A stretch of DNA of 32,000 nucleotides from Planctomycetales bacterium (GTDB lineage Bacteria > 4484-113 > JAFGCY01): contig CP060262.1 in the NCBI GenBank assembly GCA_022646745.1, forward strand, positions 1,260,001 through 1,292,000. Reading direction: 5' to 3'. Of this stretch, positions 2,161 to 12,872 are shown one piece after another. Positions within the stretch are counted from its first letter, which is position 1; each line of letters starts with the position of its first letter. Position numbers and translations under genes: made by a program. Under the pieces are notes generated by a model that was given only the letters and a program-made list of their open reading frames with translations, did not search any database and had not been told where the DNA came from.

Positions 2161-3516
2161 CTAAACCAGCTTGAAAACCTTGCGCTTGCCAACCTTCAGC
2201 ACGACGCCCGGCTTGTGCTCATACGTTGCCATCTTGTCTGTCACGGCTTCATCGTCAAGCTTGACGGCACCGCTTTCAATCAGGCGCTGGGCTTCCTTCT
2301 TGGACGGCGCGGCATCGAGGTGCACGATCAGGTCGGCGAGCTTTGCATCGGCCTTCATCTCAGCCGGGACTGCCACTTCGGGGATGTCCTCTTCGGCAAA
2401 GCTCTTCTCCTGCACGGTGCGCTGGAAGTGTGCGGCCGCTTCTTCAGCTGCCTCCTCGCCGTTGTACATCGCCGTGATCCGGGTTGCCACCCACTTCTTG
2501 ACTTCCATCGGCTCGCTGTCAATCCGCGCCTTCCACTCATCCTTGAGATCCTTCGGCCCCTCGAGTGCGATGTCGATGTAATGCGCGATCATTTCGTCGG
2601 TGATGCGCATCACCTTGCCGAACATATCCTCCGGCTTCTCCAGCACATCAATCGTATTGCCCCAGCTCTTGGACATCTTGCGTCCGTCGGTGCCCATCAG
2701 GAGCGGGAAGGTCAGCATCACATGCGGACCTTTCACGGCGGTGCCGGTCTGTGGCTGCTCCGCCGCCAGCGGATGTGGCTGGCCTGCGAGGATGTCTCCG
2801 CTGTCAGGGTGGTGCCGTTCGGCGAAGTACTTCTGCAGGATGCGTCCGGCCAGCAGGTTGAAGTGCTGGTCGTAACCGCCGACCTGCACATCGCAGTTCA
2901 GCGCGAAGGCGTCATAGCCCTGCATCAGCGAGTAGAAGCATTCGTGCAGGCGCACGCCGGCGCCGCTGTCGAGCCGGTCACGGAAATCCTGGCGGGCGAT
3001 GATCTGGCTCAGGGGGAACTGTGCGGCGATCTCCGTCGTCTCGGCGAAACTCAGCCTGCCGAGCCATTCACCGTTGAAGCGAATTTCAGTATTATCGGGG
3101 TCCAGCAGGCGGTGCGCCTGGCCGGTGTAGAACTTCGCCATCTCCATCACATCATCATGGGTAAGGCGCTTGCGCTCAGAACTCTGCCCGGTGGGGTCGC
3201 CGATCATCGCCGTGTAGTCACCGATCAGGAAGATGACCTGGTGCCCAAGCGTCTGGAAGCGGCGCAGCTTGACCACCGGCACCATATGGCCGATATGCAG
3301 GCTGGTGCGTGTCGGATCGGCACCGATATATATGCGCAGCGGTTCGCCGGTCTTAGCGCTGCGCTCCAGCTTCTTCTTCATCTCGCCACGCATCTGCGCG
3401 CGGATGCCGGATTCGCCGCTGTCCTGCCCCTGCCTGAGCGAGGCCTCATCTGCGAAGTAGCTGCCTTCGAAGAGGAAGTCCAGCTGCTGTTCGATTGTCA
3501 TGCCTGATGTATCCAT
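2161..3516 (-). CDS. tyrS: tyrosine--tRNA ligase
   Basis: Class I motifs HIGH (SLHIGHMVPV) and KMSKS (GRKMSKSWGN), GGYDQHFNLLAGR, and a C-terminal S4-like domain (KKEAQRLIESGAVKLDDEAV). The ORF track runs to 3756, but its first 80 aa are Arg-rich and overlap the divergent gene. I take the ATG at 3516 (MDTSGMTIEQQ); the ATG at 3501 is an alternative. Confidence 0.93.
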   Translation of the reverse strand: MDTSGMTIEQQLDFLFEGSYFADEASLRQGQDSGESGIRAQMRGEMKKKLERSAKTGEPLRIYIGADPTRTSLHIGHMVPVVKLRRFQTLGHQVIFLIGDYTAMIGDPTGQSSERKRLTHDDVMEMAKFYTGQAHRLLDPDNTEIRFNGEWLGRLSFAETTEIAAQFPLSQIIARQDFRDRLDSGAGVRLHECFYSLMQGYDAFALNCDVQVGGYDQHFNLLAGRILQKYFAERHHPDSGDILAGQPHPLAAEQPQTGTAVKGPHVMLTFPLLMGTDGRKMSKSWGNTIDVLEKPEDMFGKVMRITDEMIAHYIDIALEGPKDLKDEWKARIDSEPMEVKKWVATRITAMYNGEEAAEEAAAHFQRTVQEKSFAEEDIPEVAVPAEMKADAKLADLIVHLDAAPSKKEAQRLIESGAVKLDDEAVTDKMATYEHKPGVVLKVGKRKVFKLV

Positions 3517-3591
3517 AGTTGCCGTCCAGCGGATGCAGCCCGCATCCGTGCCGGATATGATACCGCCGGGTCTGCCCAGCTGCCGCTCCTT

Positions 3592-3597
3592 TATAAT
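3592..3597 (+). promoter_or_regulatory. candidate -10 box (TATAAT) for the 3630 lipoprotein gene
   Basis: Perfect TATAAT in the tyrS/lipoprotein divergent intergenic region, about 32 nt upstream of the ATG at 3630. No clear -35 element. Confidence 0.35.
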
Positions 3598-3629
3598 GGG
3601 TGAGGTTAAAGACCCGGAGTGTGCATCAG

Positions 3630-4220
3630 ATGAGATACCTTTCAGTATTGTGCCTGTTGTTGATTGCGCTTCTGGCCTCCGCCTGCCCCCAGGGAGCTGG
3701 CGACCAGGCTGGTTCGAGCGCTGCCCCTGCCGGTTCCGCATCCTCCGGTGCCGCATCCGTTGATGCCGATGATTCCAGCGCCGGGGATACGGTTTCCACT
3801 GAGAGCGATGCTGAGGCTATCGCCCGGGCGCATGGCACACCGGTAAATGGCAGTGACGATGCCGATGCGGACAAGCCTGTCAATCCCGCCGCCGTTGGCG
3901 AAGAGGCTGAAGCCGCCATGCAGGTGGTGCGCGACATGGCCAAGTACCTTGTCACGGGCGAGCGTGATTCCTTCATCGCCTGCTTCCACCCGGAATCCCC
4001 TGAACTGGAGGAGATGACCGGGATGTTTGACAGCAAGCAGGGCAGCATCACTGCCGTGCAGGTCGTCAACCTGGAGGTCAAGGAAGCAATGAAGGGCTTC
4101 GCAATGGTTGACTACGAATTCAGCATCTCGGAGAGCGGTAAGGAAGCAGAGACCGAGTCCGGCAGCATGGAGCTGCGCCAGGCCGAGGACGGCCATTGGC
4201 AGATCTACGACCTGGACTGA
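3630..4220 (+). CDS. lipoprotein, low-complexity linker plus small globular C-terminal domain (NTF2-like by guess)
   Basis: The ATG at 3630 gives MRYLSVLCLLLIALLASAC (signal peptide plus lipobox-like LASAC). An Ala/Ser/Asp-rich linker follows, then an ordered domain of about 110 aa. GGAG lies about 10 nt upstream. Confidence 0.7.
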   Translation: MRYLSVLCLLLIALLASACPQGAGDQAGSSAAPAGSASSGAASVDADDSSAGDTVSTESDAEAIARAHGTPVNGSDDADADKPVNPAAVGEEAEAAMQVVRDMAKYLVTGERDSFIACFHPESPELEEMTGMFDSKQGSITAVQVVNLEVKEAMKGFAMVDYEFSISESGKEAETESGSMELRQAEDGHWQIYDLD

Positions 4221-4259
4221 GTCCGGTCTGATCCTCAGTACTTTCCACAGGGACCAGTC

Positions 4260-5906
4260 ATGAGGTACTTACTTGCGTTGACAACGGCAATCGCCGTCTG
4301 CTGCTGTGCATCGTGTGCCGGGCGGACGGAGCTGGCTGCGGATTCCCAGCTGCCGCCCAACGCCCTGCAGGATGCCTGGCAGGACCAGCTGCCCCCGCTG
4401 CCCCCGCAGCGCTCCTCGAGTGGTACTTCCGTTTCCGAGCGTGTCGGCAGCAACTACCTCGTGAAGAGCAGCAATGCGATCGAGGATGGCAACCGGCTCG
4501 ACCTGCTGAGCGGGTCGAACAGCATGGCCTGGGCCTACTGGCAGTACACCGGCGGGCCGCGCGCCGTCACCAGCCTCGAGTTCGTGATGGACGTGCCGGC
4601 TGACAATCAATACTTTGTCGCAGTGCCTGACTACCGCAGTGGCCGCTGGCAGTTCCGCGGGCCATTCGACAGCGGCCGGATATTCCGGGCTGACAACTTC
4701 GACTTCTACTCACCTGGCGGGGACTTCTACGCGCTGGCGCTGACCGCCGGTGGCAACAAGGCCAGTGTGGCTGCCGTCAATGTGACCACGGAGGACAACT
4801 GGCAGTGCATCACCCTCCGTCCGGATGTGTCTGTCAACACGCAGCCCCTGGTGGAGATTGTGGATGGCAAACCGGTCGTGGTCTGGTATGACAAGGACAC
4901 GGATGCCTTCCGCATCCTGCGCAGCAGCACGATGTTCGGCGAGGACCCGTCGGACTGGAATGAGCAGATCTGGCTGTTCACTGGCGACAAGTTCGTGCGC
5001 TACACGGATATGGCAATCATCAACGGCAAGCCAGCCGTAACATTCAGTGATGGTGACAGCCACGACCTGAATTACTTCCGCGAGGGCATGGATGACTACA
5101 TCGTGCTCAGCGGCGACCTGAATGCATCGGGCGGCCGCAGCAGCCTGCTGGAAGTGGACGGGCACGCCGCGATCAGCTACCGAGATGGTTCCGGTGGTGA
5201 CAACAGCCAGGGCGCACTGGTATATATGCGCAGCGGCACTCCGAACGGCCTGCAGGGAGAGGACTGGGAAAGCCGCGTCACGGTCTACGGTGCCAACCAG
5301 GGCTTTGACAAACCGGACATGCAGATTGTCAGCGGCCATCCGGCGATCGCCGCATTCGACTACAGCTTCGAGAACGTGATGTACTGCTGGACCACGGACA
5401 CTGACGGTATGACAGCGGAGAACTGGAAGAACCGCACACTCTATACCAGCAATGACAACCCGGAGTTCATCAACCTGCATGTACTGGACCAGTATCCGGC
5501 AATCGCCTTCAAGGATGCCAAGAACGGTGAGGAGCTCTGGTTCCTGCAGGCTGCGGTGGCGGACCCCGGCGATGAGCTCAATGACTGGAACAGTCCCTTC
5601 GTGATTGACAGCACCGGCAACGTTGGCCAGGGCACAAGCCTGTCAAGCATCAACGGCCGGCCCTTCATCTCCTACCTGAAGGACGGAAGTGGCTCGGAAC
5701 TGCGCTATGCAATCTCCAACACGCTCAATGGCATCCAGGGCAGCTGGCAGAAAGGACTCGTCGAGGATGAGAATGTGCAGAGTTCCACGCTCTACACGAA
5801 AGCGCTGAGTATTGAAGGCCGGATGGTCATCTGCTTCCTGGAATACAACGGCAGTGACATCCGGAATATCAACTGGTGCTGGCGCGAGGCCGGCGGACTG
5901 GAGTAG
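4260..5906 (+). CDS. lipoprotein: shared N-terminal module plus seven-repeat beta-propeller-like domain
   Basis: MRYLLALTTAIAVCCCASCAG (signal/lipobox). aa 64-178 form the module shared with the 6040 and 12872 proteins (..MAWAYWQY..FVAVPDYRSGRWQF..YALALTAGG..). Seven repeats of the pattern x-G-x-P-x-I-x-[FY]-x-D-(n)-L-x-Y follow (GKPVVVWYDK, GKPAVTFSDG, GHAAISYRDG, GHPAIAAFDY, QYPAIAFKDA, GRPFISYLKD, GRMVICFLEY). Confidence 0.8.
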   Translation: MRYLLALTTAIAVCCCASCAGRTELAADSQLPPNALQDAWQDQLPPLPPQRSSSGTSVSERVGSNYLVKSSNAIEDGNRLDLLSGSNSMAWAYWQYTGGPRAVTSLEFVMDVPADNQYFVAVPDYRSGRWQFRGPFDSGRIFRADNFDFYSPGGDFYALALTAGGNKASVAAVNVTTEDNWQCITLRPDVSVNTQPLVEIVDGKPVVVWYDKDTDAFRILRSSTMFGEDPSDWNEQIWLFTGDKFVRYTDMAIINGKPAVTFSDGDSHDLNYFREGMDDYIVLSGDLNASGGRSSLLEVDGHAAISYRDGSGGDNSQGALVYMRSGTPNGLQGEDWESRVTVYGANQGFDKPDMQIVSGHPAIAAFDYSFENVMYCWTTDTDGMTAENWKNRTLYTSNDNPEFINLHVLDQYPAIAFKDAKNGEELWFLQAAVADPGDELNDWNSPFVIDSTGNVGQGTSLSSINGRPFISYLKDGSGSELRYAISNTLNGIQGSWQKGLVEDENVQSSTLYTKALSIEGRMVICFLEYNGSDIRNINWCWREAGGLE

Positions 5907-6039
5907 CGACTGGCAGATGGTTGAATCCGAATCAATCGACCCCATGCGCGGTCCTATTGGTTAGGATCTGAGCGGATGAAACTCCTCGGGCGAATGAGTG
6001 CTCAGATGATTACCGGGAGCCATCCGGCGGAGCAATGCA

Positions 6040-8100
6040 TTGTCCTATGTTCTGTTGTTCGGTCGAGTTCTGGCGACACTGGCCCTGATATGCCTGTCAT
6101 GCACTTGCGGGGATTCAGCATCTCTGCTGGCTGCGTCTGACGCGCCTCACGCAGAAAGCCTGCTGCCAGGATCAGTGGTCCTGCCTGCTCCTTCCGCCCT
6201 TGAATCAGTTGACGACGGGATTCTGGATCCGGCCGGCCGGCAGGCCAGCAATCTTGATCTGGAGTTGCTTGACGGAGCCCCCCTGATTGAAGCGAGCGGA
6301 GTTGCAAACTGGTCGGTTGGCAGCCTCAACCTTGAACCGGCAGGCGAACTGGACTTGGCATGGGCGATCTTCAGGGCATCCGGCCTGGACTCGGATGGAT
6401 CAGCGATCCCACTTTCCATCCAGCTTGAGACCGACAAGCCAGGCTGGCTTGCAATCAGCGATTATTCCCGCAATCGCTGGCGGATCATCTCCTTCAGCGG
6501 CAGTGGCGGAATACCTCTGGCGAATGGAGATGAACTGGTTTCCACGGCAGGGCATTGCCATGTTGCCGTGCTGGCATGGCAGGACGGACTGGACCTGACA
6601 TCCCTGGTACTGACCAGCAACCAGCAGCCTGCGGAGCCGTTGTTGAATGAAGGCGAGATGCTGGGCGTGAACATGGAGCGCATCGGTGACAGTGCCAGGG
6701 CATGGAGTTTTGTGGATGTGTTCAAATGTTCGCGGGCTTTTACTTCAACCACTGCCGGCGGGGCACCAGATGCACGCCCGCTTGACCTGGACGAGCATGG
6801 CTGGGTGAAGTCCCTGCAGTCCGGTCAGGCAGCGACTGCAATCTTCCTCAACTCACAGATGGGGAACTATCCTGCCGGACAGTTCATCTGCCTGTACGAG
6901 GGAAGTGGCAGCATCCTGGCGGTTGGCGATGTGAGCATTGCTTCGCAGACGCCGGGGCGCATCGTGCTGGACTATGCACCAACTGCCGGTGGTCGGGCTG
7001 CCCTGCGCGTTACCAGCACAGATCCGAAGGATTACATACGTGGGATCCATGTCGTGTTTCCCGAGTATGAAGTGGACTATGACAGCCAGATTTTCCATCC
7101 GGATTTCCTGTCAAAGTTCAGTCCATTCAAAGTGGTGCGCTTCCTGAACTGGACTCGTAGCAACAATTCTCCGCTTGTGGAATGGGAGGAGCGGGGCCAT
7201 CTGGATCACCAGACCCAGGACAGCAACTATGGCGTCGCCCCGGAATACATCTGTGCACTCTGCAACCGGCTGCAGGCAGATGCGTGGGTGAATATCCCGC
7301 ACCTCGCCAGTGATGACTATGTTGCGAGCTATGCGCAATTCCTGCGCGACAACCTTGATCCTGGGCTGCGGGTGTTCGTGGAGCACAGCAATGAATTGTG
7401 GGGCGGTTTTGCCCAGGGCGATTATGCAGAGGCACAGGGACTCGCCGCCCAGCTCAGCGATGACCCGTACACGGCACGCATCCGCTGGCACAGCCAGAGA
7501 AGCGTGCGGATATTTGAGATCTTCGAGGAGTCATTTGCCGGCAGCGCTAGGTTGGTCAGGGTGATGGGAGCAGCGCATCACGATCCATTCACTCTTACGG
7601 AGGCACTCGACTGGCAGGATGCCTGGCAGCATGTCGATGTTGTGGCGACAGCACCATACATTGGTGGACGCCTCGGTGCTCCGGCTAATGCCGAGAACAC
7701 CAAGCTGCTGGACATCGCCGGAGTGATCCAGGCGATGGATGACGACAGTGTGCTTTCCGCGGGAAAGACGCTGGCGAACAGGGCGATCTGCGATGCACAC
7801 GGAGTCGGGTATGTTGCATATGAAGGAGGACAGGCGCTGTATGGGCAGGGTGGCTATGAGAACGACCCCGTGCTGGCAGCTCTATTCATCGCCACCAACA
7901 GGGACCCGGGCATGCGGCAGCTGTATTTCGACCATCACAAGCGCTGGCATGACAATGGAGGAGGGTTGTTCATGGCCTTCACATACATCGGTCTGTACAG
8001 CGGAAGCGGATGCTGGGGCATCTTCGAGACCCAGCAGCAGGATACCCAATCCTCGTTCAAGTACCTTGGCCTGCTGGACTACGACGCAACATTGCCATGA
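6040..8100 (+). CDS. lipoprotein: shared N-terminal module plus putative clan-GH-A-like (TIM-barrel) glycoside hydrolase domain
   Basis: TTG start at 6040 (uncertain). Signal/lipobox ..LATLALICLSC. aa 70-192 form the shared module (..LAWAIFRA..WLAISDYSRNRWRI..HVAVLAWQ..). The C-terminal 450 aa contain VFVEHSNELWGG (Asn-Glu at 7390-7395, a typical acid/base strand) and YVAYEGGQ (Glu at 7822-7824, a candidate nucleophile). GH family not identified. Confidence 0.7.
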   Translation: MSYVLLFGRVLATLALICLSCTCGDSASLLAASDAPHAESLLPGSVVLPAPSALESVDDGILDPAGRQASNLDLELLDGAPLIEASGVANWSVGSLNLEPAGELDLAWAIFRASGLDSDGSAIPLSIQLETDKPGWLAISDYSRNRWRIISFSGSGGIPLANGDELVSTAGHCHVAVLAWQDGLDLTSLVLTSNQQPAEPLLNEGEMLGVNMERIGDSARAWSFVDVFKCSRAFTSTTAGGAPDARPLDLDEHGWVKSLQSGQAATAIFLNSQMGNYPAGQFICLYEGSGSILAVGDVSIASQTPGRIVLDYAPTAGGRAALRVTSTDPKDYIRGIHVVFPEYEVDYDSQIFHPDFLSKFSPFKVVRFLNWTRSNNSPLVEWEERGHLDHQTQDSNYGVAPEYICALCNRLQADAWVNIPHLASDDYVASYAQFLRDNLDPGLRVFVEHSNELWGGFAQGDYAEAQGLAAQLSDDPYTARIRWHSQRSVRIFEIFEESFAGSARLVRVMGAAHHDPFTLTEALDWQDAWQHVDVVATAPYIGGRLGAPANAENTKLLDIAGVIQAMDDDSVLSAGKTLANRAICDAHGVGYVAYEGGQALYGQGGYENDPVLAALFIATNRDPGMRQLYFDHHKRWHDNGGGLFMAFTYIGLYSGSGCWGIFETQQQDTQSSFKYLGLLDYDATLP

Positions 8101-8174
8101 GCTCTTGAATCCCCCAGTTTGACAGGCCGATTCCGCAGGGTCATAATCTGCCTGTACTGCTGAGGTGGGACACC

Positions 8175-9227
8175 ATGCACAAAGCTACATTTGGCCTGAT
8201 AGCAGCACTGCTGGTGCTGCTTGTATCCTGCAACGAGGGAAACCCCGACAGCCAGTCGGCGCAGCTGGCACAATCGACTGCGCCAACGGCTGCCGCAGAA
8301 CCGGATGCATCAGTCACACTGGCGGATTCCTCCAACTCAAAAGCTGCAGCTGGGCAGCCTGAGCACCTCGGTTACTGCGTTGAATACTGCGCTTCCTGCG
8401 GTGAACACCGTGGCGAGAACACCGCACCGCCCCGTGACGAACCGGTGCGGATCAATTTCGACTTCATGGCAGTGCACTACAACGATGCTCCGGACGCGGA
8501 CATGTCAAAGCTGGACTTCGTACTCGTCGGACAGTGGCGCAACCGTGAGCGGATGAAGACCCACCTCTCGATGGACCACCGCGAGCAGGACAACTTCCCG
8601 ATCGTGGATGTCGGGTTGTGCAAGCTGCATGTCGAGCCCATGCTGTCCGAGGTGGTGGAGACGGCGATCCGCAACCGCAGTGGCAACGATTACAAGACCT
8701 ACGGCGCCTACATGGTGACGGTCACCGACCCAGACGGTGTACTTGTGGGCGAGTTCCCGCTTGATGGCAACGGAGAAGCGGGAGAGGCACAATGGCAGAA
8801 CACGAAGGAAAGCGTCTACCACGTCGGCAAGGCCTACAAGCGTGACAGCGACGAATGGCGTTACGACATCCGCCGCATGTCAGAGTTCCGCGAGCAGGAG
8901 TATGAAGCACCTGTGCTGTTCGGGCTGGTGTTCCGCAATGAGGGCAAGCTCAGCCATTCGGATGTGGCCCCGGACCATGGCACGCATGAGTACGTATTCC
9001 CGGCCGCCGGCGTTGACATCTACACTCCCGAGGCGATCCGCGCCGCCGGGCTGGCGGCAATCGAGCGTGAGAAGGCGGAGCGTGACGTGAAGCTGACTGC
9101 GAATGCAGGGGAGCTGCCGAAGCTCGAGCCGGCATTCATCGCGCGGGGCATTGGCGATGGAAACAAGGATCCGGGCAATGGCTACAGTCCGCCGGTCTAC
9201 GGCGGTGGCTGCGGCGGTGGTGGTTGA
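8175..9227 (+). CDS. hypothetical lipoprotein
   Basis: MHKATFGLIAALLVLLVSC (lipobox LVSC). GAGGTG lies 7 nt upstream and CATAAT further upstream. Coding-type third-position bias. No recognisable domain. Gly/Cys tail ..VYGGGCGGGG. Confidence 0.75.
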   Translation: MHKATFGLIAALLVLLVSCNEGNPDSQSAQLAQSTAPTAAAEPDASVTLADSSNSKAAAGQPEHLGYCVEYCASCGEHRGENTAPPRDEPVRINFDFMAVHYNDAPDADMSKLDFVLVGQWRNRERMKTHLSMDHREQDNFPIVDVGLCKLHVEPMLSEVVETAIRNRSGNDYKTYGAYMVTVTDPDGVLVGEFPLDGNGEAGEAQWQNTKESVYHVGKAYKRDSDEWRYDIRRMSEFREQEYEAPVLFGLVFRNEGKLSHSDVAPDHGTHEYVFPAAGVDIYTPEAIRAAGLAAIEREKAERDVKLTANAGELPKLEPAFIARGIGDGNKDPGNGYSPPVYGGGCGGGG

Positions 9228-9261
9228 AACTGATCAGCCGCTCCCGTGTGGAGCAGTCCTG

Positions 9262-9864
9262 TTAATCGCCGCCGCCGATCACGAAGATCACATACAGGAT
9301 CTTGTCGAGGAACAGGCAGATCCAGCCGGCGATGTTCCATGCCGACATCGTGTCGTTGAACTGGTTGATGTCATTGAAGCGCCGGCCCTGCCAGGCCAGC
9401 TCCTTGCCCTTCTGGCCGATGTACAGCGCATAGAGTGTCGAAACGACGGGGATCCAGCAGACGATCAGTCCGACGATGCCCAGTGCCACCTGGCCATTGG
9501 CAAAAGCGAACAGCCCGAAGGGCACGCAGCCTGCGGCCGTGAAGCCCTGGGCATCCGCCGGTACTCCGGCCGCAGCTCCCATCCCACTGCTGTTTTCGCC
9601 ATAACCGCTCATGGTCTGCTGGCGGTAGTACTCCTGGGCCACTGCCGGGTCAAGGTTCTGGGCGCTGATCTGTGGTTCCTCCTGCCTCATCTCCGATGGC
9701 GAAGGGGCCACATAGCCGGGTCGCTTGCCGCTTTCCTCCGTCCAGGAACGGTACTTCGGTCCGCTGGAAGACTCGGCCTGGGCCTGGTTGCCAAGCGGCC
9801 GCATGCAGCTTGAACATGTGCTGCGGCCCGGTCCGTTACTGGCACCACAAGCAGGACACTTCAT
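9262..9864 (-). CDS. zinc-ribbon membrane protein (paralog A)
   Basis: N-terminal CxxC..CxxC ribbon (MKCPACGASNGPGRSTCSSC), a Pro/Gln/Ser-rich linker, and a C-terminal membrane domain GCVPFGLFAFANG..GKELAWQGRRFNDINQFNDTMSAWN.. that is homologous to the adjacent gene. Confidence 0.8.
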   Translation of the reverse strand: MKCPACGASNGPGRSTCSSCMRPLGNQAQAESSSGPKYRSWTEESGKRPGYVAPSPSEMRQEEPQISAQNLDPAVAQEYYRQQTMSGYGENSSGMGAAAGVPADAQGFTAAGCVPFGLFAFANGQVALGIVGLIVCWIPVVSTLYALYIGQKGKELAWQGRRFNDINQFNDTMSAWNIAGWICLFLDKILYVIFVIGGGD

Positions 9865-9897
9865 TTGCTTATCCCCCCGTCGCGGAATTAATACAGG

Positions 9898-10482
9898 CTA
9901 GAAATTACCACCGCTGCCTTCCATGCTGATGGCGAACACGATCAGGGCGACGTACAGGATGGCCCCGATCACTGACATGATGATGCTGAAGATCAGGTAG
10001 ACCTTGCCCCAGTAGTTCCAGGCATTCATGGTTTCGTTGTATTCCTGGCGGCTGTTGAAGCGCCGGTTCTGCCAGGCGAATTCATTGCCCTTGATCAGCA
10101 GGACCAGGTTGGCAAGGCTGCCGACGAAGCAGCTTGCGACCAGCACGATGATGCCCCACATCGCGGCCCCGTTGGCAAAGGCGAAGATCCCGCAGGGCAG
10201 GCAGCCACCCAAGTTCATGTTCTGGGTCTCTGGAGGCAGGGGATGACCGCTGCCCATCCCGCTGGTGTTCGGGATCTGCTCGTAGCTGCCGAAACTGGGC
10301 GGGACAGTGCCGGGTGCTATCGGGGGAGCCTGCGGCGGTGGCGGAATGCTGTGTGGCGGAGGGGCCTGGAAATGCTGTGGATCCGGCTGCGGCGACCCGG
10401 ACTGTTCTGCCAGCAGCTTGCCGCAGCTGATGCAGAACTTCGTCTGGTTGTCATTCTCCGCACCGCAGTGCCCGCAGAACAT
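9898..10482 (-). CDS. zinc-ribbon membrane protein (paralog B)
   Basis: MFCGHCGAENDNQTKFCISCG ribbon, a Pro-rich linker (PPPHSIPPPPQAPPIAPG), and a C-terminal domain GCLPCGIFAFANG..GNEFAWQNRRFNSRQEYNETMNAWN... GGAGGA lies 6 nt upstream of the ATG. Confidence 0.82.
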   Translation of the reverse strand: MFCGHCGAENDNQTKFCISCGKLLAEQSGSPQPDPQHFQAPPPHSIPPPPQAPPIAPGTVPPSFGSYEQIPNTSGMGSGHPLPPETQNMNLGGCLPCGIFAFANGAAMWGIIVLVASCFVGSLANLVLLIKGNEFAWQNRRFNSRQEYNETMNAWNYWGKVYLIFSIIMSVIGAILYVALIVFAISMEGSGGNF

Positions 10483-10537
10483 CCGGATTCCTCCGATCAG
10501 TGATCAGTTCCAGTATAGCAAGCCGGAGCTGCGTGGA

Positions 10538-10912
10538 TCAGTGGTACTCGTTGTGCTCAAGGAAGAAGCCGTTGCCTTCGGGGTCCACGCAGTCCACTAC
10601 GCGAACCCCGGGAGCCGGGTCGCGCACCTCACTGCACACTACGCCGGCTCCGAGCAGCCTCTCGCGCGCGGCGTCGATATCGTCAACGGCAAAACCGAAG
10701 CGCGGTTGCACCTGCTTGGGCATGAGTTCAAGGCCGCCATGCAGCGCCAGCGTGCATGCGCCTGAACTGAAGCTGACCCACATTTCATTTGAGTAATCGT
10801 CCTTGCCGGCCGGCCAGGCGATCTCAAGCCCCAGCCGGTCACGGTAGAACTCCACGGCGGCTGCCATGTCGCTTACATAGACAATGATCTCAGATATGCC
10901 CTTCAATGCCAT
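10538..10912 (-). CDS. VOC (glyoxalase/bleomycin-resistance/dioxygenase) family protein
   Basis: 124 aa. The N-terminus ISEIIVYVSDMAAAVEFYRDRLGLE is typical of a VOC beta-alpha-beta-beta-beta module. AGGAG lies 7 nt upstream. Confidence 0.85.
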   Translation of the reverse strand: MALKGISEIIVYVSDMAAAVEFYRDRLGLEIAWPAGKDDYSNEMWVSFSSGACTLALHGGLELMPKQVQPRFGFAVDDIDAARERLLGAGVVCSEVRDPAPGVRVVDCVDPEGNGFFLEHNEYH

Positions 10913-10967
10913 TTCGCAATCTCCTGGTCCCGTGCCGATGCAGGCATTCTAACTCGTGCAACGCGTA

Positions 10968-12872
10968 TCAGGGATTCAGGTAGTCATCCAGCGGGTAGCT
11001 TGCAAGCCGCCAGACCTGGAACTGCCGCTTGTGGATCGGCAGGCTGGGGTTGCCTGGCGGCATCGTGTCATTCTGGATGCGCGCATTACTGGCTGTGCCA
11101 GCGTTCTTCGTCTCCGTGTAATCTCGCAGGAAGGGGCTGACACTGGTCTGGCTGTCCGGACGATGGCAACTGCTGCAGGAATTGCCGACATAGCTGGCAG
11201 CGAAGTTCTGCCAGGTGGGACCGCCCGTCTTGAGCTGGATCGTTGCGGAAACGGACACATCAATGTCCGCCAGGGGGAAGCTCCAGCTCGCACCGCCATA
11301 TGCAACCTGGCTGTTGAACAGCTTGTAATTTCCCTGGTCGGCAGCCGGGAACTCAAAGTAACCGGTATTGTCAGTGTACGTTGAATAGCTGGCTGGATTG
11401 CCATTCTGTCCCTGCAGGGTCATCAGCAGGCCCGGGATGCCATACTTCTCGCTGGCGTCCCCCGGCACGAACCAGTCCATCTGGCCGGAAACCTTGCGGG
11501 TTGGCGGCGGGGCTGTTGCTGCGAAGTCGATACCGTTCTCATTGGCACTGCCGAGGTTGACCAGGCGCACGACGGGATTGAAGGTCCACTTGCCCAGCGT
11601 GGGCTTGAGGTTGTACTGCGAGGGTGCCAGGTTGGTGAAGCTGTAGTTGCCGTTCACATCAGTGAAGGCCAGCCGGAATCCCGGGGTCAGGGTGACGGCA
11701 ACGCCCGGCACAGGGCTGCCACCATCGTTGATGTTGCCGCTGATGGCGAAGGTCGGCTGCCCGCCGCTGGCTTCGAAATCCACGCCGTCCTCATCGGCGC
11801 CGCTCACGTTGACATTCTGCGAGCTGGGCGTGAAGCTGTAGCCGGCCTGCAGCGGGTCGACGGTATAGGCACCGTCCGCCACGCCCTCGAAGCTGTATTC
11901 GCCATCCGCCCCGGACACCGTTGTCATGATTGAACCGGGATTGAGCGTGAGCGAGATGCCGGGTACGCCGACTCCCTCCGCTGTTGCCACCCGGCCGCTG
12001 ATGTCGATTCGGGTGCCCGTGAAGTCGATGTTCTCCATCGTTCCGCTGACATTAACGTTCTGCGAGGCAGGCATGTAGGCCACATTCATGCTCTGCGGCT
12101 CGAAGCTGTACATCCCCGCTGTCGGCAGTCCGATGAAGTATGTGCCGTCAACATCCGTCACCAGGGTGACGCCATCAGGGTTTGGGTTGACGAAGATGTA
12201 CTGGCTGGCCAGCGGCTCGCCGTGCTCGTCGAGGATGGTGCCGCTCACGCTGTGGTCATACATCACATCGTTGTCAAAGCGCACGGACAGGGACTTGACC
12301 GTTGCCGCGCTGCCCCCGCTGGTCAGGATGGCCACGAAGAACTGTGAGGTGCTGTTCAGGTACAGGCTCGGCGGCATGTCATAGCTGGCCGGGCCACTCG
12401 TCGGGGCCTGCCACTGCCAGCGGCCGGACTGGTAGTCACTGTATGCAATGTAGGCCACACTGCCCGGGTTGCAGGTCAGGTCCACGCTCAGTCGCTCGGG
12501 CTGGTAGCCACCGGTGTTGAAGGCGTACAGCGCCCAGGCGGTTTCCGCCGTGCTGCTGGGCAGTACGATTGCGCTGTTCGGGTACAGGCAGTTCGGGCTG
12601 GAGCTGAAGATGCCGATGCCGTTGTAGCTCACGATGTTCGTGAAGCTCAGGTTGCGGTCCGGTCCTGCCGCCGGGTCCTGCGCAGGCAGGTCTGGCAGGG
12701 TGCTTCCCGGCAGCTGCCGGAGGTCCAGCCCTTCATGAGAGGCCAGCACGGCAGGGGTGGAAAGCATCTCCGCCTGTTGCTCACCACCACAGGCGGCGAG
12801 GCATAGCAGGGAGAGGGCCAGCAGGGCATTGACCATGGCGCGCATGGCAGTCGTGTCCAGCACAGGGCTCAT
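10968..12872 (-). CDS. lipoprotein: shared N-terminal module, four CarboxypepD_reg-like Ig repeats and a C-terminal c-type haem (CXXCH) domain
   Basis: GAGGAG lies 8 nt upstream of the ATG at 12872. Lipobox LCLAAC. Shared module at aa 74-199 (..TAWALYAF..YIAYSDYQSGRWQW..FVAILTSGG..). Four repeats of about 80 aa have the form ISGxV..G.PvpGv.vtL.....t.tD.nG.Y.F..l..g.Y. CSSCH lies at 11163..11177 and is followed by ..NDTMPPGNPSLP..QVW, resembling the PSCyt1-type cytochrome c domain. Confidence 0.85.
   Translation of the reverse strand: MSPVLDTTAMRAMVNALLALSLLCLAACGGEQQAEMLSTPAVLASHEGLDLRQLPGSTLPDLPAQDPAAGPDRNLSFTNIVSYNGIGIFSSSPNCLYPNSAIVLPSSTAETAWALYAFNTGGYQPERLSVDLTCNPGSVAYIAYSDYQSGRWQWQAPTSGPASYDMPPSLYLNSTSQFFVAILTSGGSAATVKSLSVRFDNDVMYDHSVSGTILDEHGEPLASQYIFVNPNPDGVTLVTDVDGTYFIGLPTAGMYSFEPQSMNVAYMPASQNVNVSGTMENIDFTGTRIDISGRVATAEGVGVPGISLTLNPGSIMTTVSGADGEYSFEGVADGAYTVDPLQAGYSFTPSSQNVNVSGADEDGVDFEASGGQPTFAISGNINDGGSPVPGVAVTLTPGFRLAFTDVNGNYSFTNLAPSQYNLKPTLGKWTFNPVVRLVNLGSANENGIDFAATAPPPTRKVSGQMDWFVPGDASEKYGIPGLLMTLQGQNGNPASYSTYTDNTGYFEFPAADQGNYKLFNSQVAYGGASWSFPLADIDVSVSATIQLKTGGPTWQNFAASYVGNSCSSCHRPDSQTSVSPFLRDYTETKNAGTASNARIQNDTMPPGNPSLPIHKRQFQVWRLASYPLDDYLNP

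Follow-up and report, generated by a model that had tools for sequence, protein, structure and literature searches.

A conserved N-terminal module with a predicted carbohydrate-binding-module-like fold in three lipoproteins that differ in their C-terminal domains

A module common to three lipoproteins

The window considered here, a 32,000-nucleotide stretch of a Planctomycetales bacterium genome (GenBank assembly GCA_022646745.1, contig CP060262.1, positions 1,260,001 to 1,292,000), encodes three lipoprotein-like proteins, designated A, B and C. An earlier note, made from the sequence alone, had described them as sharing one N-terminal module placed directly after the lipoprotein signal and a linker. 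All three open reading frames (ORFs) are present, and a six-frame scan of the window showed the AWA-x-[YF] motif occurring alongside DY-x-x-x-RW in these three ORFs only. The genes and the elements of their N-terminal regions are as follows.

4260-5906 (+): protein A, ORF of 548 aa
4260..4316 (+): protein A signal peptide and lipobox region, Cys16 or Cys19, sequence MRYLLALTTAIAVCCCASC, aligned with the lipobox Cys column of the family
4317..4388 (+): protein A flexible linker from anchor to module, with a predicted local distance difference test score (pLDDT) under 50 at residues 17-32 in the full-length model
4389..4793 (+): protein A module, residues 44-178, comprising the LPPLPPQR motif and a predicted 10-strand β-sandwich (hidden Markov model (HMM), AlphaFold2, Foldseek)
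6040-8100 (+): protein B, ORF of 686 aa with TTG as start codon
6040..6102 (+): protein B signal peptide and lipobox region, Cys21, with GGAG 7 nt upstream of the TTG start at 6040
6181..6627 (+): protein B module, residues 48-196 (HMM)
10968-12872 (-): protein C, ORF of 634 aa
12789..12872 (-): protein C signal peptide with a canonical lipobox, L-A-A-C, Cys28 (sequence pattern)
12276..12698 (-): protein C module, residues 59-199, comprising an LPDLP motif and a predicted β-sandwich (HMM, BLASTP to A)

Pairwise comparison by BLASTP gave E = 4e-10 for A and C (26% identity over 146 aa), E = 1e-5 for A and B, and E = 0.022 for B and C. An HMM of the module was built from 133 homologues in the database; to avoid circularity, neither the window proteins nor the two relatives closest to them were included. 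The window proteins were then scored with it at a search-space size of 1.8e9 sequences. The whole domain was aligned in protein A (167.5 bits, E = 2e-44), protein C (146.8 bits, E = 5e-38) and protein B (80.2 bits, E = 1.4e-17). This result confirms the proposed common module in all three proteins, B included, and the similarity remains significant even though B and C score poorly against each other. The copy in B is the most divergent of the three, with 20-28% identity to A in module alignments, and B is a true yet divergent member. Proteins A and C have orthologues at ~77% protein identity in the loci L007 and L008 but are only ~26% identical to each other, and they are therefore old paralogues.

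The start of the module lies ~20 residues upstream of the positions given in the earlier note, at a proline-rich LPxLPxxR motif that begins at residue 44 in A (nt 4389), residue 48 in B (nt 6181) and residue 59 in C (nt 12698). The motif lies outside the sandwich, which spans ~120 residues of a whole module of ~135. The anatomy of the family was read from an alignment of 138 homologues, in which the motif positions, in A numbering, are conserved at 91% (L44), 96% (P45), 82% (P48) and 96% (R/H/K51). The consensus of the sandwich reads W-[AG]-[ILM]-[YW]-x-F ... [AS]-[DN]-[YF]-x-x-G-x-W-x-x-x-G-P ... S-P-x-G-x-x-Y-x-A-V. Its conserved positions, again in A numbering, are G63, S70 (86%), L80, L82, W91, an aromatic residue at 94, D/N124 (98%), Y/F125 (99%), W130 (99%), G134, P135, S151 (91%) and G154.

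Members of the family share a fixed order of elements: a signal peptide with the lipobox Cys, small side chains at +2 and +3, an Ala-, Gly-, Ser- and Pro-rich linker (median 21.5 aa, range 10-31), the LPxLPxxR motif and the sandwich. The lipobox column holds Cys in 82% of the 138 homologues, many of the remaining rows being N-terminally truncated, and position +2 is Ala, Gly, Ser or Thr in 92 of 100. Nearly all complete homologues start with a lipoprotein-type signal. Among the three window proteins the lipobox follows the canonical pattern [LVI][ASTVI][GAS]-C in C only (L-A-A-C28). Those of A (C-A-S-C19 or V-C-C-C16) and B (L-S-C21) are Cys-rich variants, with a non-canonical Cys at -3, that align to the Cys column of the family. 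Thus the lipoprotein signal and linker that had been placed ahead of the module are borne out at the level of pattern and family alignment, and A, B and C are probably lipidated. The public NCBI call for gene B starts at GTG 6175 and gives a protein of 641 aa that has lost its signal peptide; a start at TTG 6040 brings the lipoprotein signal back, and other gene callers give the corresponding 686-aa product (P0169). The call for P0086, in locus L012, likewise looks N-terminally truncated.

Family, predicted fold and partner domains

Searches of Pfam-A (2025) and NCBIfam (release 20) returned no match over the module in A, B or C, and Pfam returned none over the module in 20 full-length homologues. 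Neither collection, CBM (carbohydrate-binding module) families included, matched any of 41 isolated diverse modules even at E ≤ 5. A profile search against all PDB sequences produced only noise (E > 0.3; antibody V domains, C1q and the S-layer protein Sap), and a literature search on conserved N-terminal lipoprotein domains found no description of the module. The earlier note had not recognised it as a named family, and the searches agree. The module is thus a real, unnamed domain family that is N-terminal by rule. What is new is the sequence family, its obligate N-terminal placement and the LPxLPxxR motif; the fold class and the modular lipoprotein with β-sandwich accessory domains are known.

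A word-indexed homologue search with the module gave a single fragment, and the family came to light only when 1.84 billion cluster representatives (clusters at 50% identity) were searched exhaustively with an HMM. The module matched 751 protein clusters at E ≤ 1e-3, 153 of them at E ≤ 1e-10. It is single-copy and N-terminal in all 150 matches listed, and in each of the 159 module proteins examined it follows directly on the anchor and linker. The copy numbers per genome are minimum figures: three copies occur in the window, at least four are dispersed on the 1.88-Mb AC1.30 contig, and two lie within 7 kb of each other in the unrelated contig L011. Sampled members that carry an NCBI name are all labelled '[bacterium]', that is, from an unclassified metagenome-assembled genome (MAG), and are described as hypothetical, PKD, PQQ or CarboxypepD_reg proteins. 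Such labels fit a lineage-restricted family but fall short of proof. Of the lineage-specific family proposed in the earlier note, the large family with a common head therefore stands, and its restriction to one lineage is compatible with the labels.

To define the partner architectures, the regions after the module in the top 150 module proteins were clustered and then scanned with Pfam. At least nine C-terminal architectures were found, in keeping with the original claim of unrelated domains behind one head. The commonest partner is the 7-repeat propeller of A (102 of ~133), often with one to four PKD domains in between, followed by the CarboxypepD_reg repeats of the C type (19 proteins). The remaining partners are PKD only, PPC, NHL/SGL propellers, fn3 and PQQ/BamB-like propellers, and the C-terminus of B is a singleton in this set. 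The propeller is also found without the module, in P0157 (from a Planctomycetota MAG) and P0158, and the module and its partners have thus evolved as independent units. The Planctomycetota label of P0157 was weighed as a pointer to origin and set aside, since this protein has the propeller in common and lacks the module.

The structure of the A module was predicted with AlphaFold2 from a 41-sequence alignment. The model has a pLDDT of 90.3 and a predicted template-modelling (TM) score of 0.81, and consists of ten β-strands and no helices; the same strands reappear in the full-length model of A. In a Foldseek search of the PDB, the top 23 matches were all CBMs or CBM-bearing enzymes, including BT0996-C, CBM86, CBM29, CBM6, a mannanase with its CBM and a CE2 esterase. 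CBM16, CBM61, a phloem lectin and also Cry/Vip3 toxin chains appeared at lower ranks. The CBM matches (probability 1.0, E from 5e-4 to 1e-3, TM 0.5-0.58, root-mean-square deviation (RMSD) 4-5.5 Å, 7-13% identity) set the fold class, a CBM-like jelly roll, and not family membership. A fold search of the viral database BFVD returned jelly rolls of a generic kind, belonging to tail fibres and to phage proteins that are uncharacterised, and these were no better than the CBM matches in the PDB. The earlier note had left anchoring, targeting and ligand binding as options for the head, and among these three the predicted fold favours ligand binding. We are highly confident that the module is a real, unnamed N-terminal family and that its predicted structure is a CBM-like jelly roll.

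The domains that follow the module in the three window proteins are given below.

4794..5903 (+): protein A C-terminal 7-bladed β-propeller (seven ~50-aa repeats in the alignment consensus; AlphaFold2 pLDDT 83.6; Foldseek)
6628..8097 (+): protein B C-terminal domain of ~490 aa, the residues after the module, with no family assigned
11238..12251 (-): protein C four CarboxypepD_reg (transthyretin-like) β-sandwich repeats (Pfam PF13620, E = 7e-29, 4 stretches)
10971..11210 (-): protein C C-terminal mini-cytochrome c-like domain (CSSCH at 11163-11177, MPP downstream)

The propeller of A, already recognised as a 7-repeat domain in the earlier note, is confirmed by its repeats, by the AlphaFold2 model and by Foldseek. 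The repeat consensus of ~50 aa reads G...SLA.V.G.PAI.Y......L.Y......G....DW, Pfam assigned no family to it, and pLDDT is mostly above 85. The nearest structures in Foldseek are the Photorhabdus lectin PHL (5mxh, E = 2e-11), GH145, the PL24 (ulvan) lyases and sialidases, a similarity at the level of fold only. The whole chain of A aligns loosely with the NanB sialidase (2vw0; ~650 columns, E = 5e-10, RMSD 17 Å, TM 0.38).

The C-terminal domain of B matched nothing in Pfam (E ≤ 10), NCBIfam or the PDB sequences (E ≤ 10). It holds the motifs VEHSNELWG (451) and VAYEGGQ (592), ~140 residues apart, which are compatible with the catalytic motifs of clan GH-A (NE and E-G-G). The description of this domain as a GH-A-like barrel comes from these two motifs and is unverified by database matches. 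The slot of gene B (window 5903-8117) is variable: in L006, a strain at 96-97% nucleotide identity, it holds an unrelated ORF for a polytopic membrane protein of 250 aa (L006 1848-2640), and in L007 and L008, at 77-79% identity, it is empty, the next lipoprotein gene following directly after A (L007 11535-11552). Gene B is therefore a strain-specific acquisition or replacement.

In protein C, the Ig-like repeats and haem domain of the earlier note correspond to the CarboxypepD_reg repeats (PF13620) and to a conserved CxxCH...MPP segment. The C-terminal ~80 residues carry CxxCH...MPP...W..G.P, which is kept in 16 of 18 C-type homologues. Together with a sub-threshold Pfam Cytochrom_C match (E = 0.044), this conservation supports a haem domain.

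Candidate roles of the module

In the mechanism proposed here, A, B and C would be three paralogous envelope lipoproteins, each with a lipobox Cys anchor, a leash of ~20 residues, the LPxLPxxR motif and a ten-stranded sandwich of ~120 residues, and an uncultured bacterial lineage would set this module before many different extracytoplasmic domains. The module would act as a lectin- or CBM-like head, tethered to the membrane by a short leash, that keeps differing 'business ends' at one glycan. The glycan could be a polysaccharide substrate common to these proteins or a polymer of the cell's own envelope; in the latter case the module would serve as a secondary anchor or organiser. This lectin-like reading is based on the fold neighbours, on the conserved polar and aromatic loop positions and on the glycan-related look of several partners. 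R51, S70, D124, Y125 and S151 are such positions, lying in or beside loops, and conservation in the loop regions seems to exceed the need of a passive spacer. As for the partners, the proximity of the A propeller to a lectin, GH145 and PL24, the NanB-like domain order of A and the GH-A-like motifs of B suggest glycans. We lean to the cell's own envelope glycan as the target, because the anchor-proximal position is invariant and most partners are non-enzymatic. Glycan binding by the module, read from a predicted model, is a reasonable but tentative proposal.

Several points weigh against glycan binding. The structural likeness to CBMs in the predicted model is at fold level only (TM ~0.55, RMSD 4-5.5 Å, 7-13% identity), jelly rolls have many non-glycan roles, and no sequence model of a CBM family matches the module in the Pfam and PDB profile searches. 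Classical CBMs are found at various positions, as a rule together with catalytic domains; the module, by contrast, has a fixed position and mostly non-catalytic partners, namely the propeller without a Pfam model, PKD and CarboxypepD_reg. In addition, many of the conserved residues are Gly and Pro in turns or alternating hydrophobic residues in strands, and may be purely structural.

An alternative is that the module and its LPxLPxxR motif form a protein-docking or sorting tag, read by an outer-membrane partner or by surface-export machinery, which would mark lipoproteins for display or for a common complex. Its function would be analogous to that of the lipoprotein export signal of Bacteroidota, of Slam substrates and of the C-terminal domains (CTDs) of the type IX secretion system (T9SS), although the tag would be a folded N-terminal domain. 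Such a tag would account for the invariant position after anchor and linker in the 159 module proteins, for the high conservation of a Pro-rich motif outside the sandwich and for a cargo as diverse as that of sorting tags. The host would also offer an outer membrane, since a FadL/TodX outer-membrane protein encoded at 118-1527 indicates a diderm organism. However, the surroundings of the module genes at the four independent loci compared (the window, L011, L012 and L013) share no conserved secretion or sorting gene, the kind of link that the earlier note had suggested looking for. Moreover, no TbpB-like or T9SS CTD structure is among the top Foldseek matches, and known lipoprotein export signals are short peptides beside Cys+1 rather than folded domains of 135 residues. 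A docking or sorting tag is therefore a rather doubtful explanation. That LPxLPxxR and the jelly roll together constitute a folded N-terminal address tag of the uncultured lineage, either sending lipoproteins to the surface or locking them on an envelope polymer or complex, we consider unlikely; if true, it would represent a principle of lipoprotein sorting or anchoring that has not been described in model bacteria.

The sandwich adjoins the anchor, PKD spacers often stand behind it, and many of its conserved positions are turn or core residues, all of which would suit a passive pedestal, a stable domain that lifts the C-terminal domain off the membrane, as the N-terminal Ig-like domains do in lipoproteins of the SusE/SusF type. 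Yet spacers of the PKD and Ig kinds can replace one another and occur as repeats, while the module is always single and always first among the matches listed, and conservation across 751 clusters, the invariant polar and aromatic positions and the additional LPxLPxxR motif amount to more constraint than a spacer needs, making a mere pedestal quite improbable. Jelly-roll heads can also trimerise, as in C1q and TNF, and the module might assemble the lipoproteins into multimers. Weak matches to C1q chains in the profile search (E ~1) and the phage tail-fibre jelly rolls among the BFVD fold matches point in this direction, but the C1q E-values are non-significant and the top fold matches are monomeric CBMs; oligomerisation is accordingly very unlikely. 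As to whether the similarity itself could be due to chance or to the composition of signal peptides and low-complexity linkers, the E-value of B and C and the inclusion of the signal peptide in the A-B alignment might have raised this suspicion. It is ruled out, with hardly any doubt left, by the independent HMM, which spans the whole 130-residue domain at 80-167 bits in all three proteins, by the 751 matching database clusters and by the confident fold prediction.

The proposed glycan-binding head may be compared with known systems. Jelly-roll CBMs (CBM6, CBM29, CBM86 and BT0996-C; PDB 2cdo, 1gwm, 6sgf and 7zvo) resemble the module in size (~130-140 aa) and in their all-β sandwich, and both are accessory domains of modular extracytoplasmic proteins. 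There is no detectable sequence relationship between them, and the module differs in being obligately N-terminal by a lipoprotein anchor, in having LPxLPxxR ahead of it and in its mostly non-catalytic fusions; its binding is putative. Protein A resembles the NanB-type sialidases (N-terminal lectin/CBM40 and propeller; 2vw0) in domain order alone, having seven blades and a lipoprotein signal, with no sialidase motifs found. Surface glycan-binding proteins (SGBPs) of the SusE/SusF type are lipid-anchored, modular all-β proteins in which sandwich domains occur alongside glycan-binding modules. In these, an Ig-like spacer is membrane-proximal and the CBMs are distal, whereas the module is anchor-proximal. 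SGBP genes lie in polysaccharide utilisation loci beside SusC/SusD, and no such neighbours were found at the window locus. SLH domains, the T9SS CTD and the Bacteroidota lipoprotein export signal each place one terminal element on many unrelated proteins, as the module does, but differ from it in terminus and fold, have no sequence match to it in Pfam or NCBIfam, and come with machinery of which no linked counterpart was seen.

The family, with at least 751 clusters at 50% identity, is definable straight from the present alignment. NCBI names now read 'hypothetical protein' or refer to the downstream PKD, CarboxypepD_reg or PQQ domain, and a definition would annotate the N-termini. The gain is one of annotation for envelope proteins of poorly known wastewater and environmental bacteria; it generates hypotheses and settles no long-standing question, and candidate phyla commonly yield new domains of this sort, without an assigned function. 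Should the module prove to bind a glycan, it would represent a new family of CBM-like domains, unusual in acting next to the anchor; should it prove to be a tag for sorting or anchoring, it would show how the surface lipoproteome of a candidate lineage is organised.

Neighbouring genes and lineage

Four lipoprotein-like genes stand in a row on the forward strand (3600-9227), comprising an ORF of 206 aa (3600-4220), A, B and an ORF of 350 aa (8175-9227). The flanking lipoproteins at 3600-4220 and 8175-9227 were considered as further module carriers and rejected, the module HMM having no match in either, and of the four only A and B carry the module. The 206-aa ORF has a weak, sub-threshold NTF2-like match. 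Two adjacent ORFs on the reverse strand, of 200 and 194 aa (9262-9864 and 9898-10482), appear paralogous, both having N-terminal CxxC pairs, a linker rich in Pro and, at the C-terminal end, a hydrophobic segment that includes a shared FAFANG motif; Pfam recognises a zinc ribbon in the second (9898-10482) only. The tyrosyl-tRNA synthetase ORF at 2161-3756 (-) encodes 531 aa from the first in-frame start, with the Pfam domain beginning at residue 137, and the public call gives 446 aa. The Arg/Gly-rich N-terminal extension is probably not translated. At another locus (L013, AC1.30), a gene of 671 aa with an HZS_alpha-like propeller (7984-9999) lies directly upstream of, and abuts, the gene for the module-NHL protein P0165.

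The GC content of the window is ~60%. Three MAGs assigned to UBP7 come from saline activated sludge of the Shatin plant, Hong Kong (PMC8495973), and a 2024 review gives UBP7 genomes as 0.83-1.39 Mb with 36-53% GC (PMC11382960). The depositors' 'UBP7' label on the lineage of L006-L008 may be outdated, as a GC content of ~60% and a contig 4.11 Mb long fall outside this description, and the phylum assignment of that lineage therefore needs rechecking.

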